A stretch of 64,000 bases of DNA from an uncultured bacterium. GTDB lineage: Bacteria; Desulfobacterota_D; UBA1144; Nemesobacterales; UBA2774. A program made the translations under genes and the position numbers. The stretch's first letter is position 1, and every line of letters starts with the position of its first letter. Where the stretch lies: assembly GCA_963705505.1 (NCBI GenBank), contig CAVPJU010000010.1:608001-672000 (forward strand), given 5' to 3'. Of the stretch, positions 28,920 through 32,907 are shown piece after piece. Below the pieces are notes generated by a model. It was not told the origin of the DNA, searched no databases, and saw nothing but the letters and a program-made list of their open reading frames with translations.

Positions 28920-31166
28920 TTATAGACTACGGTTCACGCGCTCGGGTTTTTTTATACCGAGCTTTTTCATGCGGGATCGTAAAGTATTGGGATTGATTTT
29001 CAGTATTCCTGCCGCCCCCCTCTTACCGTCTATCACCCAGCCTGTTTCCTCGAGCACATTGATGATATGACCGCGCTCGACATCGTCCAGAGTTTTATTG
29101 TCTTCGGCAGGCGACCCGGGAGAACAATTGGTATTCCCGAGTACGGAGTCGTCTATCCTGATCTCCGGGGAGTTGGAAATTACAACCGCCCTTTCCACAA
29201 TATTCTGCAGCTCTCTGATATTACCCGGCCACTGATAGTTGAGAAGCCTTTCCATTGTCTCTCTGGAGAAACCGGTAAACTCCTTACCCAGTTTTTTTGA
29301 AAATTTTGTCAGGAAGAAATTGGCGAGCAGCGGAATATCGGATATACGCTGACGCAGCGCCGGCATTTCTATCGGAAAGATGTTGAGCCTGTAAAAAAGG
29401 TCGGACCTGAACGATTTTTCTCTCACGGCTTCGACGAGGTCCCTGTTGGTGGCCGCAATTATCCTTACGTCCACTTTAATCGTTGTGCTGCTCCCTACCC
29501 TTTCGAACTCCCCTTCCTGAAGCACCCTGAGCAGCTTTACCTGCACATCCGGCGGCAGCTCCCCGACCTCATCCAGGAATATTGTTCCTCCCTCAGCCAT
29601 CTCGAACCGGCCGATTCTCTTTTGCAGGGCGCCTGTAAACGCCCCCTTCTCGTGGCCGAAGAGCTCGCTCTCGACGAGTCCCGCCGATATCGCCCCGCAA
29701 TTGACCTTTACGAGCGTACTCTGTCTGCGGTCGCTCAGGTTGTGAATCGCGCGCGCGACGAGCTCTTTTCCGGTCCCGGTTTCCCCGTGAATAAGGACTG
29801 TCGTACCGGTGCGCGCTACCTGCTCGACACTCCTGAGAACCCTTTTTATCTCATCCGATCTGCCGACTATTTCCTCAAAATTGTTCTCCGTATTTATTTC
29901 TTCGCGCAGATAGACGTTCTCAATCTGGAGGCGGTTTTTCAGCTTCTCGACCTCGGCGAGAGCCTCCCGGAGGGACCTCTGTGATTCCCTGAGCTCGGCC
30001 GCTTGTTTCGCATTGTTAATCGCAATCTCGATCTGCCTCGATACGATCTCCAGCAGCTTAAGCTCATCCTCGTCAAACGCATCCTTGTGAAAAGAGGTGA
30101 CATCCAGAGTGCCTATGACCTCCCCTCTGGTCCGGATGGGAACGCACAGGAAGCTTTTAACGCCCGCTCTCCTGGCGACGCTGGCGGCTTCGACCGTATC
30201 CAGGTCGGGACAATAATTCGGCTCCCCCTTAATGATGGTTTCCCATGTAAAACCCTTCGGCCGAGGGATCCTGCTCGTAAACTCGAGATACTTGCCGGGG
30301 TATCCTCTTTGCGCTTTCAGCACGGCTTCATCGCCCTCTATCAGATATATTCCCGCGCAGTTTACCCTTTCTATATTGTTGCTGAGCGCCTCGACGGCGT
30401 TTTCAAAAACCTCTTCCGGCTTCAAAGACTGGTGCACGACCCGCGTGACGTTGCTTATGATTGTCTCGTACCGGTTCTTCTTTTCTAGTACGATATAATT
30501 TTCCCTGAGCGAATCCTCCGCACGCTTGCGCTCTATTTCGGCGCCGGCCCGGGAAGCGAATATCCGTAACACGTTAATACCGAGCGGCTCGTCAGCCATC
30601 GGCTTATCGTCTATCACCGCGATATGACCCAGCACATTTTCCCACGTATCCCGGATCGGTATCCCGAGATAGCTCTGCGCGCCCATATCGACGAGACCCG
30701 TATCTTCGGGGAATAACGACTGAAGCCTGTCCGGATAAACACACACATCCCCCGCGATAACGTTTTCGCACGGCGTTCCCTTCAGCTCAAATTCGATATT
30801 CTCGCCGAAATGATTGTCGAGCCAGAACGACAGCGTGCGGACTTTAGTGAACGTGCTGTCCGTGCACTGGGCTATGAATGCATAACGAACCCTCATTGCC
30901 GAAGCAAGATGCTGAACCAGGGAGTTAAAGAAATTCGCCCCCACAACGGAAGCCGTACCCTGAGCGAGATGATTGAGGATCTCCAGATCTTTAGAATTAT
31001 CGCCGCCGTTCGAATAAAATTCCTGACCGCCGCCGCCGTCAGCATCCATACGTGAGCGGGACAAGGCGCTGTCCTTTAGCGGGGACCGATGCAAGTCCTC
31101 TGCATTTCTGGAGATTGAAAGAGATGCTTTCCTGTCCAGTTCATCCAAATGTTTATCGTTACTCAT
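28920..31166 (-). CDS. sigma54-dependent activator (GAF-GAF-AAA+-HTH, FhlA-like)
   Basis: [39 protein letters not shown]-terminal HTH; two GAF domains. Confidence 0.95.
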
Positions 31167-31331
31167 ATGTAGTTACAGGTTTCCCGTCCGTAAAAGTATT
31201 TTCCCGAGGGGTATCAAAGTCAATACAACACTAAAATATATATACATCGCTGCGGAGCGAATGGATCCACGAAGTATTTAACCGAAATGAAATCAGCAGG
31301 ACACAACCGATCCTTTACCTTAACGGAATAT

Positions 31332-31366
31332 CACGATATTTCGTAACAACCACTATATTTCATAAC
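31332..31366. promoter_or_regulatory. candidate upstream activator sites (tandem imperfect repeats)
   Basis: CACGATATTTCGTAAC (31332-47) and CACTATATTTCATAAC (31351-66), 14/16 identical, ~100-135 bp upstream of the -24 element. Confidence 0.6.
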
Positions 31367-31464
31367 CCCTCCTTAATACCCTTTAGCTGCCCACGTATTG
31401 CTATACGGCAAATAATGCAATGATATAGGAGTGTTAGAGCGCTATATCGATATTATTTTGACAT

Positions 31465-31480
31465 TGGCACAACGCTTGCA
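31465..31480 (+). promoter_or_regulatory. sigma54 (-24/-12) promoter
   Basis: TGGCAC-AACGC-TTGCA with exact GG-N10-GC spacing, facing the STAS gene and divergent from the activator. Confidence 0.88.
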
Positions 31481-31560
31481 CTTAGTAGGAACAAATGAAA
31501 TCGCAGATTAAAAAAGCAGAGACGCGAAATCCGAGGAATCAAAAAGAGGAAGGCTCATAA

Positions 31561-31860
31561 ATGCTGATGATATCGAAAATAAAGCAGGACAATGAAAACA
31601 TCACGTTGAAGTTGGACGGGAAGATCGAGGGGATGTATTTAGAGGAGCTGGAGGGGGCATGTAAATGTCACCGCGCCGGAAACAACAAAACGATAACACT
31701 GGATTTTTCGGGTGTGACCTTTATAGACGATAAGGCTTTGGAAGTACTGTCGAGGTTAAAAGACAGACGTTTAAAGATAGTCAAGTGCTCTCCCTTCATC
31801 AAGACTCTGCTGAACGAACTGGCGGACGATGAACGGGAAGAAGGTAGCGTAAAAAATTAG
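31561..31860 (+). CDS. STAS domain protein
   Basis: LKLDG.I...TLDFSGVTFID...L..L. Confidence 0.8.
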   Translation: MLMISKIKQDNENITLKLDGKIEGMYLEELEGACKCHRAGNNKTITLDFSGVTFIDDKALEVLSRLKDRRLKIVKCSPFIKTLLNELADDEREEGSVKN

Positions 31861-31882
31861 AATGCCATGCGGAGGCAACGTT

Positions 31883-32551
31883 ATGAGTGCGTATAAATTA
31901 AAGAGCAGGGAAGTCAGTGTTAAGTCGAATATAGGTAATTCGTGTTTGGATATTTCAGAGATGCCCGATGAGAATCTGCTTGACCGCATTGCCGTAAGCG
32001 GGAACGAGCAGGCGCTTAATGAAATCCTGAGACGCTACAGAGACAGGATATACAGGACCGCTCTAAAAGTTACGAACAACCATAACGACGCCGAGGATGT
32101 AGTTCAGGAGGTTTCGCTGACGATTTACAGAAAGGCGCATACCTTCCGCACGGATTCCAAGTTCTCGACCTGGCTATACAGGCTCGTCACAAACGAAGCC
32201 ATCTCGAGACTGAGAAAAATTAGAAGAGAAAGAACCGTCTCGCTCGACGATTATATGCCCAGGTTCGACGATGACGGTCACCATGCCGAAAGACCTGTAG
32301 TCGACTGGTCGCAGGAGGTGGAGAAAAAGGTAGCCGTGAGGGAGATACAGTCCATTATAGAACGGGCAATGCAGGAGCTTACGCCCATCGACAGGACCGT
32401 AGTGGTACTGAGCGAAATAGAGGAGCTGACGAATCCGGAGATCGGAAAGGTGCTCGGCCTGAGCGTACTGGCAGTGAAAGGGAGACTCCACAGGGCGCGA
32501 CTTTTTCTCCGTGCAAAACTGGCGGTCCAGCTGGGATATTCAGCAGCTTAA
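31883..32551 (+). CDS. ECF RNA polymerase sigma factor
   Basis: Region 2 DAEDVVQE..FSTWLYRL..N; region 4 EIG.VLG.S..AVKGRLHRAR; GGAGG RBS. Confidence 0.95.
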   Translation: MSAYKLKSREVSVKSNIGNSCLDISEMPDENLLDRIAVSGNEQALNEILRRYRDRIYRTALKVTNNHNDAEDVVQEVSLTIYRKAHTFRTDSKFSTWLYRLVTNEAISRLRKIRRERTVSLDDYMPRFDDDGHHAERPVVDWSQEVEKKVAVREIQSIIERAMQELTPIDRTVVVLSEIEELTNPEIGKVLGLSVLAVKGRLHRARLFLRAKLAVQLGYSAA

Positions 32552-32644
32552 TCGGAATTTTTGCTTGATAGCAGGTGCTTACGTAAATAAATATGCTTTA
32601 AGCCGCACACCCGATCGGGTCCCGACATATTCTATTAAATTTCG

Positions 32645-32672
32645 GATCCAACCCCTTCTTCCATACGTCTAA
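32645..32672 (+). promoter_or_regulatory. putative ECF promoter, copy 4 (anti-sigma)
   Basis: GATCC-N16-CGTCTAA. Confidence 0.75.
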
Positions 32673-32691
32673 TCAGGTAAAGAGGAAAGAA

Positions 32692-32907
32692 ATGGCCGGA
32701 CGAATAATTCCAAAGAATAAAAGACAGTCTGTTGACACATGCAGGGATGCGACGAGCCTGATACTAGAGTTTCTGCAGGGAGAGCTGAGCCCGGAGACCA
32801 ATTCCGAATTCGAGAAGCACCTGCAAGTATGCCCTGATTGTGTAGCGTTTCTGAACACGTACAGAAAAACCATCGAGCTTACCAAGAGGTTTCTCCATAA
32901 GCAGTAG
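32692..32907 (+). CDS. soluble zf-HC2 (ZAS) anti-sigma factor
   Basis: C...L.GEL...HLQVCPDC (HxxxCxxC); no TM segment. Confidence 0.88.
   Translation: MAGRIIPKNKRQSVDTCRDATSLILEFLQGELSPETNSEFEKHLQVCPDCVAFLNTYRKTIELTKRFLHKQ

Follow-up and report, generated by a model that had tools for sequence, protein, structure and literature searches.

How would an extracytoplasmic function (ECF) sigma factor be switched on and restrained when its likely promoter motif stands not before its own gene but before that of a putative anti-sigma factor? The question is raised by a locus in a 64,000-nucleotide (nt) stretch of an uncultured Dadabacteria genome (assembly GCA_963705505.1, contig CAVPJU010000010.1, positions 608,001–672,000; hereafter the window), in which the gene for a sigma-54 enhancer-binding protein (the activator) is divergent from genes for a stand-alone STAS-fold protein, an ECF sigma factor and a soluble zinc anti-sigma domain (ZAS). 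An initial annotation of this DNA had proposed a two-tier cascade, from the activator through sigma-54 to the ECF, in which a separately promoted, redox-sensitive ZAS would add both negative feedback and an AND gate. Every coordinate and motif given in that annotation was found in the sequence. We find that the locus is a real, conserved regulatory unit, and consider it somewhat better than an even bet that it encodes a stress cascade gated by sigma-54 and braked by its own output; conserved footprints give good support to both the cascade and the promoter for the feedback.

A sigma-54-to-ECF gene order in two Dadabacteria families

Searching 51 genomes of the order with the ECF sequence gave matches in 22 at E-values up to 1e-44, and an orthologue (E up to 1e-54) in 19 of the 51, at 20 loci, with two genomes of a paralogue clade (G041, G049) and a third outside the tree (G095, 47% identity) set aside; the ECF clades come from a quick tree, in which the orthologue clade has an SH-aLRT value of 97. 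The order of divergent activator, sigma-54 promoter, STAS, ECF and ZAS recurs in 15 of these 20 loci, across two families, so that the synteny on which the initial annotation would stand or fall is conserved. Several cassette genes are broken in two of the 15 (G023 and G051), and a contig end cuts the activator in G008 and G040.

The activator carries two GAF stretches, a Sigma54_activat domain, an AAA lid and an HTH_8 domain in a Pfam-type search, and its GAFTGA motif is unbroken (residues 508–513, nt 29645–29628), as had been claimed. Its AAA+ domain with GAFTGA, Walker A and B motifs and C-terminal HTH are those of an enhancer-binding protein, and sequence conservation alone adds the other parts expected of such a system, namely a -24/-12 promoter, an upstream enhancer and an rpoN gene for sigma-54 in the source genome. 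NifA and FhlA are its top NCBIfam models, both under cut-off. Like enterobacterial FhlA, it has the order GAF-GAF-AAA+-HTH and an enhancer with a common ATTTCGT core (PMC4987338; here and below, papers given by PMC number are cited from partial text); unlike FhlA, it reaches 413 bits against the cut-off of 830 for the FhlA equivalog NF011958, with the match (E 2.7e-123) confined to its C-terminal part. No formate hydrogenlyase genes were found among the window proteins scanned. In orthologous activators the second GAF domain is replaced by PAS, and a GTPC cysteine motif in the first (about residues 60–215) is kept in 11 of 12 aligned domains and reads GTAC in the paralogue; this cysteine is a possible cofactor or redox site.

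Divergent from the activator and facing the STAS and ECF genes is the consensus TGGCAC-N5-TTGCA promoter reported earlier (31465–31480), the only match in the window to TGGCA[CT]N5TTGC[AT], a pattern that occurs 27 times in the genome and not once in one order-2 Markov simulated genome. Fourteen of the 15 full orthologous loci carry the site, and the remaining one (G002) has a gap of Ns at that position. When eight activator–STAS spacers were aligned, just two conserved blocks emerged, this promoter and a tandem near-palindrome present in all eight and lying about 115–135 nt upstream of it, with match scores of 10–14 out of 14 across the full loci. No other sigma-54 site among the 27 in the genome has an enhancer match of at least 11/14 upstream, and we infer that the tandem element is the enhancer at which the activator binds. 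Conservation thus supports the proposed two-tier cascade of activator, sigma-54 and ECF.

The ECF itself likely starts at 31883, where an ATG is preceded by a ribosome-binding site (RBS), and one of its matches, at 50% identity, carries the name Ignavibacteriales. As the initial annotation had it, no ECF-type motif precedes the STAS and ECF genes: ATC-N16/18-CGT is absent from the plus strand of 31166–31900. Conservation supports a reading in which the ECF gene is not autoregulated and positive feedback is missing.

Related units were also seen outside the window. The source genome holds a paralogous unit (G000:C2:87595–93071, L021) with a PAS-GAF activator, a sigma-54 site at 90322 and an ECF without STAS or ZAS, followed by hydrolase-like genes and a paralogue of the secreted-protein gene described below. 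Among relatives, the activator/STAS/ECF unit has been lost repeatedly, with different breakpoints (G009:C17:615000–615400, L237; G001:C61, L238; G004:C45, L035), and the reverse loss occurs in G013:C7 (L029), where the ECF is kept, the activator and STAS are absent and the ZAS is broken.

ECF-type promoters and a candidate stress regulon

The motif missing before the STAS and ECF genes is present before the ZAS gene, which encodes the 71-amino-acid (aa) HxxxCxxC protein and, as described, starts 140 nt after the ECF stop codon. Apart from GATC-N17-CGTCTAA, the spacer between the two genes has diverged. The promoter, ATCY-N16-CGTCTAA, was found in 18 of the 20 orthologous loci, scoring 11/11 in 14 of them (0–1 of 200 shuffles did as well) and 10/11 in four (2–16 of 200); the score was defined from the same 20 loci, and the fixed position of the site weighs more than the number. 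The two loci without it are G050, where only 14 nt separate ECF and ZAS, and G013, whose ZAS gene is a pseudogene; G050 has a classical layout, the same promoter preceding DM13, ECF and ZAS in a row. A search of the ECF–ZAS spacer turned up no terminator (z -0.6 to +1.4 in five loci), and for this reason both read-through and the gene's own promoter probably contribute to ZAS synthesis. The ZAS gene is therefore better described as additionally than as separately promoted. An ECF-type promoter before the anti-sigma gene, through which negative feedback would run, is likewise supported by conservation.

A second copy, ending in CGTATAA, precedes a small secreted-type protein and is kept in every aligned orthologous locus, with the paralogue in the same genome deviating. 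When the whole genome is scored with a matrix built from other genomes, five sites of the window come out on top, and four of the five exact ATCY-N16-CGTCTAA sites genome-wide lie within 23 kb of the ECF, against none for a reversed-pattern control; the fifth falls inside a coding region. A broader motif, CGT[AC]TAA, was rejected, as it mixed two site types and took in coding-region matches, and the motif was split.

Judging from strand and spacing, we infer that downstream genes share the transcripts of these promoters. One such unit holds genes for glucose dehydrogenase, aquaporin, two HbpS-like proteins, gluconolactonase, nucleotidyl transferase, TMEM175 and MsrB, and another those for DM13, a GMC oxidoreductase, glyoxalase and FMN reductase, followed by MGH1-like and debranching glycosidases. 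The motif-preceded genes probably form a general-stress regulon. The coordinates of all features are collected in Table 1.

Table 1. Features of the cascade and predicted regulon in the window.
Feature	Position	Strand	Basis or remark
Sigma-54 enhancer-binding protein, FhlA-clade, GAF-GAF-AAA+-HTH, 748 aa	28920..31166	-	domain searches
Tandem upstream activating sequences, CACGATATTTCGTA (31332-31345) and CACTATATTTCATA (31351-31364)	31332..31364		conserved block
Sigma-54 -24/-12 promoter, TGGCAC-AACGC-TTGCA	31465..31480	+	pattern match, conservation
Stand-alone STAS-fold protein, D57 in place of phospho-serine	31561..31860	+	model, fold match
ECF sigma factor, 222 aa from RBS-preceded ATG 31883 (longest open reading frame from 31862)	31883..32551	+	domain search
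ECF-type promoter before ZAS, GGATCC-N16-CGTCTAA	32644..32672	+	conserved motif
Soluble ZAS, 71 aa, C-x25-HxxxCxxC, zf-HC2, three helices	32692..32907	+	Pfam, model
Second ECF-type promoter, before secreted-protein gene, GGATCC-N16-CGTATAA	32954..32982	+	10/10 loci
Small secreted-type protein gene, signal-peptide-like N-terminus, CLIPDY...GPC...HQH core	33024..33378	+	no Pfam family
Strong hairpin after secreted-protein gene	33387..33420		z = -4.7; not called by terminator scan
ECF-type promoter before acyl-CoA synthetase/acyl carrier protein/acyltransferase (33651-36281) and Na/H exchanger	33572..33600	+	motif match
ECF-type promoter before glucose dehydrogenase unit (10751-18755)	10688..10716	+	motif match
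ECF-type promoter before DM13 unit (19080-28888)	18973..19001	+	motif match

The secreted-type protein has a frame shift near 33295 in the assembly, the called open reading frame (to 33350) ending in a divergent tail, and its Atlas neighbours are unnamed clusters, apart from a single DUF6370 row at 0.90, which is no more than a lead. The hairpin behind it is a possible end of the transcript. Compared with intact orthologues, this gene and three others are split or shifted, those for glucose dehydrogenase (10751–11858), the MGH1-like glycosidase (24137–26834) and the Na/H exchanger (36542–38125), reflecting either assembly indels or early decay. A further site (18076–18104, plus strand), scoring 10/11 and ending in CGTATAG, lies in the gap before msrB and is possibly read by a SigK-like ECF. 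At 44273–45169 a sigma-70 family gene (298 aa) adjoins that for alanyl-tRNA synthetase, and no link from it to the cascade was seen.

The anti-sigma domain, the promoter reader and the STAS protein

The zinc ligands of the ZAS are C17 and H43xxxC47xxC50, and its C-x25-HxxxCxxC pattern is invariant in 37 of 37 aligned rows. The predicted structure (predicted local distance difference test, pLDDT, 85.8) has helices at residues 17–28, 34–46 and 48–69 and nothing beyond; the protein thus shows the C-x23-26-HxxxCxxC motif and three-helix bundle of a class I ZAS and lacks the sigma2-binding helix 4. In class I anti-sigma factors helix 1 binds sigma4 and helix 4 binds sigma2 (PMC7406223), and, going by the title of PDB entry 3HUG, the class I domain RslA was solved bound to sigma4 alone. 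Because helix 4 is missing, the ZAS is probably a weak inhibitor that binds sigma4 only. The helix-4 segment is absent from the 71–73-aa forms (family f1 and G043:C130; 13 of the first 14 short rows) and present in the longer orthologues, for example those of G040 (98 aa), G042, G044 and G052, and in the 89–104-aa forms of family f7. RsiW (E 0.63) and RslA are the top fold matches, with weak E-values and none at 0.001 or below, and a ZAS profile searched against PDB sequences matched only RslA (E 0.0037). Elsewhere in the genome (G000:C10:198413–198727, L023) a ZAS gene that includes the helix-4 segment stands alone, without an ECF gene beside it. In other genera its homologues overlap the gene of an ECF whose clade has no source-genome member in the tree.

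In the AND gate of the initial annotation, the same cascade would end in a ZAS acting as an RsrA-like thiol sensor, so that output would need both a GAF ligand and oxidation. The invariant cysteines and histidine do have the spacing of RsrA C11/H37/C41/C44 (PMC3177212), the protein is soluble, and the predicted regulon includes genes for MsrB, DM13, HbpS-like proteins, glyoxalase and FMN reductase. Against this, the redox determinants of RsrA, E39, E40, L45 and E46 (PMC3177212), read Q, V, V and A in the ZAS, none of the four being exact, although they were derived from actinomycetes and their absence elsewhere is no proof. The position of E46 is alanine in 26 and serine in 3 of 29 rows (eight rows of the paralogue clade left out), and the RsrA-type pattern of acidic residues before the first cysteine with leucine and a charged residue after the second was not found. 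The best fold match, RsiW, is redox-insensitive, though at the E-value given above, and zinc has been argued to be often structural in ZAS proteins (PMC7406223). Zinc is more likely structural here than redox-sensing; redox sensing by the ZAS is unsupported, and we regard this half of the earlier proposal as improbable.

The main uncertainty is which sigma factor reads the motif. We favour the adjacent ECF as reader of the ATCY-N16-CGTCTAA promoters, on the distribution of the sites; the CGTATAA copy at 32954 may possibly be read by this ECF and a SigK-like ECF both. Several observations weigh against the cascade as we read it. ATC/CGTA-type motifs are given for ECF11, ECF18 and ECF19 (PMC7826278), three of the 13 ECFs of the source genome look SigK-like by their neighbours, and within the genus fasciclin-like, msrA and msrB genes (names read from translations) have CGTATAA sites in front of them. 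The ZAS and its promoter also outlast the adjacent ECF: in G001 and G009, from which activator, STAS and ECF are deleted, the ZAS and the secreted protein survive with perfect promoters, and an intact ZAS with perfect promoters is likewise kept in G004, which has an internal deletion or misassembly, and in G023, where the ECF is broken. G006 keeps the DM13 and glucose dehydrogenase sites in a 500-contig assembly in which no ECF orthologue was found; conversely, G013 has an orthologue and no site before its distant DM13 gene. Five of the 20 loci (G013, G042, G044, G050 and G043:C84, the last 322 nt from a contig end) have no activator or STAS beside the ECF. Some genome-wide motif matches fall in coding regions by chance, the motif score was drawn from the loci it was applied to, and neither the relatives nor several of the metagenome loci count as independent.

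These points leave some room for cross-talk, in which a SigK-like sigma of the ECF18/19 type, to which the published motif belongs, would read the ZAS and regulon promoters, the adjacent ECF would have other targets and the ZAS would be a brake imposed by an oxidative-stress sigma. This is unlikely in view of where the sites occur. CGTCTAA sites cluster around the adjacent ECF in both families, and they are found in G036, G046 and G042, none of whose ECFs in the tree belong to the SigK-like clade (genomes 92–96% complete). Among 12 DM13 loci, of which that of G023 was left out at a contig edge, the site is absent from all eight genomes outside the genus without an ECF orthologue, and from G013, and present in both genus members whose orthologue is lost or was not found; it is also present in orthologue-bearing genomes of both families. 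In G009 many neighbouring genes are deleted or broken, which fits a recent loss. The adjacent ECF itself lies outside the clade of the three SigK-looking ECFs in the quick tree, a clade label resting on gene context and not on a hidden Markov model.

The STAS open reading frame scores under Pfam cut-offs, and its predicted structure resembles the SpoIIAA/RsbV folds (TM-score about 0.76–0.78 to SpoIIAA, 0.59 to a chain of MlaFEDB). Aligned to SpoIIAA and TM1442, its loop reads FIDDKA where SpoIIAA has FMDSSG, so that D57 replaces the serine of the D-S-S/A-G loop, which we take to be the phospho-site of SpoIIAA and RsbV; serine stands at this position in 9 of 146 aligned rows. Among the best 80 of at least 96 metagenome loci, several of them near duplicates, an activator lies upstream of 38 of 43 serine-less STAS genes with enough flank versus 0 of 12 serine-bearing ones, an ECF lies downstream of 21 of 40 versus 1 of 15, and a sigma-54-like site accompanies 24 of 52 versus 0 of 22. 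The serine-less STAS tracks the activator more than the ECF or the ZAS, a link that the initial annotation had missed along with the enhancer pair and the probable regulon of the ECF. The linked activators vary in their REC, PAS and GAF inputs and have the AAA+-HTH part in common.

A model of the STAS with this part (activator residues 395–742) scored 0.34, compared with 0.00 for the best control, its runs agreeing in at least 95% of contacts with a partner pLDDT of at least 72. Of 157 solved pairs 116 attained the same mark, as did 2 of 215 mismatched ones, though at 0.60 or under only 18 solved pairs and both mismatches did so; without a good prior case for binding, a pass of this kind is wrong more often than it is right. 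The model lends weak support to binding of the STAS to the AAA+-HTH part, and makes the STAS a candidate regulator of the activator, as a lead. The family comprises 764 clusters at 50% identity (E up to 1e-10), canonical STAS proteins maybe included. In two other loci (L133:4931–6073 and L143:4197–5273) a second activator of AAA+-HTH size follows the sigma-54 promoter and STAS; no sensor domain was found in that of L133, and both are possibly second-tier constitutive activators in place of an ECF.

It is very doubtful that the STAS works instead as an anti-anti-sigma, binding the ZAS to release the ECF. Such a partner switch has been suggested for ECF19s7/s18, where a STAS at -1 and a soluble ZAS at +1 are described (PMC7826278), and the fold is of the SpoIIAA/RsbV type; the phospho-serine is absent, however, no kinase-type anti-sigma adjoins, a ZAS is lacking from most STAS loci, and the ECFs that follow the STAS fall in several unrelated clades of the quick tree. 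Least probable of all is that no feedback acts on the adjacent sigma, the ZAS being either a truncated remnant or directed at a paralogous ECF: the loss of helix 4 from the short forms and the decay of the locus in several genomes would fit, whereas the conservation of truncation point, zinc ligands and promoter across two genera, and the binding of RslA to sigma4 alone, speak against it.

The proposed circuit and its relatives

In the cascade that we favour, a ligand at the GAF domains of the FhlA-clade activator, which with its intact GAFTGA faces the conserved enhancer pair and -24/-12 promoter, would trigger sigma-54 transcription of the STAS and ECF genes, and the same transcript would reach the ZAS and the secreted protein by read-through. 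The ECF would then read the ATCY-N16-CGT(C/A)TAA promoters, of which five are found no farther than 23 kb from its gene, and so raise genes for sugar oxidation, methionine repair, electrophile detoxification, aquaporin and ion transport, glycosidases and lipid acylation. Since the ECF would not drive its own gene, there would be no positive feedback. From the internal promoter it would raise the level of the ZAS, and this negative loop may cap or shorten the pulse by titration. In the least certain step, the serine-less STAS, as first gene of the sigma-54 transcript, would act not on the ZAS but on the AAA+-HTH part of the activator, as HrpV or PspA do on theirs.

More speculatively, and with the odds well against it, the serine-less STAS proteins could be an undescribed, widespread class of anti-activator or modulator acting on FhlA-clade AAA+ domains, whose cassette in Dadabacteria captured a general-stress ECF; two nested output-induced brakes, the STAS for the activator and a half anti-sigma without helix 4 for the ECF, would then stand in for the positive feedback usual among ECFs and convert a small-molecule signal to a self-limiting pulse.

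The nearest functional parallel is HrpR/HrpS–sigma-54–HrpL (ECF32) of Pseudomonas syringae, in which feedback and an inhibitor that binds the AAA+ domain, HrpV, are established (PMC5263251, PMC3105312). In both, an enhancer-binding protein fires, or here would fire, the sigma-54 promoter of an ECF that is not autoregulated, ECF output feeds back negatively, and a small protein, HrpV or possibly the STAS, binds the AAA+ domain of the activator. The activator here, in contrast, is single, GAF-bearing and of the FhlA clade, whereas HrpR and HrpS are a pair without sensor domains; feedback apparently depends on a zinc anti-sigma expressed from an internal ECF promoter, no anti-sigma being described for HrpL in the available text of these papers; the candidate activator-binding protein has a STAS fold; and the predicted targets are stress and metabolic genes rather than type III secretion. 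By this comparison, the locus appears to work like HrpRS–sigma-54–HrpL without being a member of that system.

With SigR–RsrA (ECF12) the locus shares a soluble class I ZAS at +1, the C-x25-HxxxCxxC motif and an ECF-type promoter (PMC3177212, PMC7406223); it differs in that the ECF-driven unit does not include the sigma gene and the ZAS lacks the redox determinants and, in this lineage, helix 4. From its description alone, ECF270, found in Deltaproteobacteria, Nitrospirae and Ignavibacteriae, is the candidate group of the ECF, having a soluble ZAS at +1 and no conserved autoregulatory promoter (PMC7826278); unlike the present locus, that group is described without sigma-54 activator, STAS or promoter motif in the available text, and the partial text of the supplement describes no ECF group with a sigma-54, STAS or CGTCT-type context. 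The STAS shares its fold with SpoIIAA/RsbV and with MlaB; unlike SpoIIAA/RsbV, it has neither the phospho-serine nor a cognate kinase nearby and is linked to sigma-54 activators. MlaB binds an ATPase.

In the literature searched, by title and abstract opening and with few subscription papers, no sigma-54-driven STAS-ECF-ZAS unit and no STAS acting on an enhancer-binding protein was described. Most ECF switches combine positive autoregulation with release from an anti-sigma factor. The locus analysed here suggests a different circuit, with sigma-54 input, without a positive loop and with output prompting synthesis of the anti-sigma, and its parts, being small, could be rebuilt in E. coli as a possible orthogonal two-stage switch. 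For an uncultured phylum on whose regulation the same search returned no paper, it provides a promoter motif and a candidate stress regulon, and it gives a large family of STAS proteins a testable candidate role.

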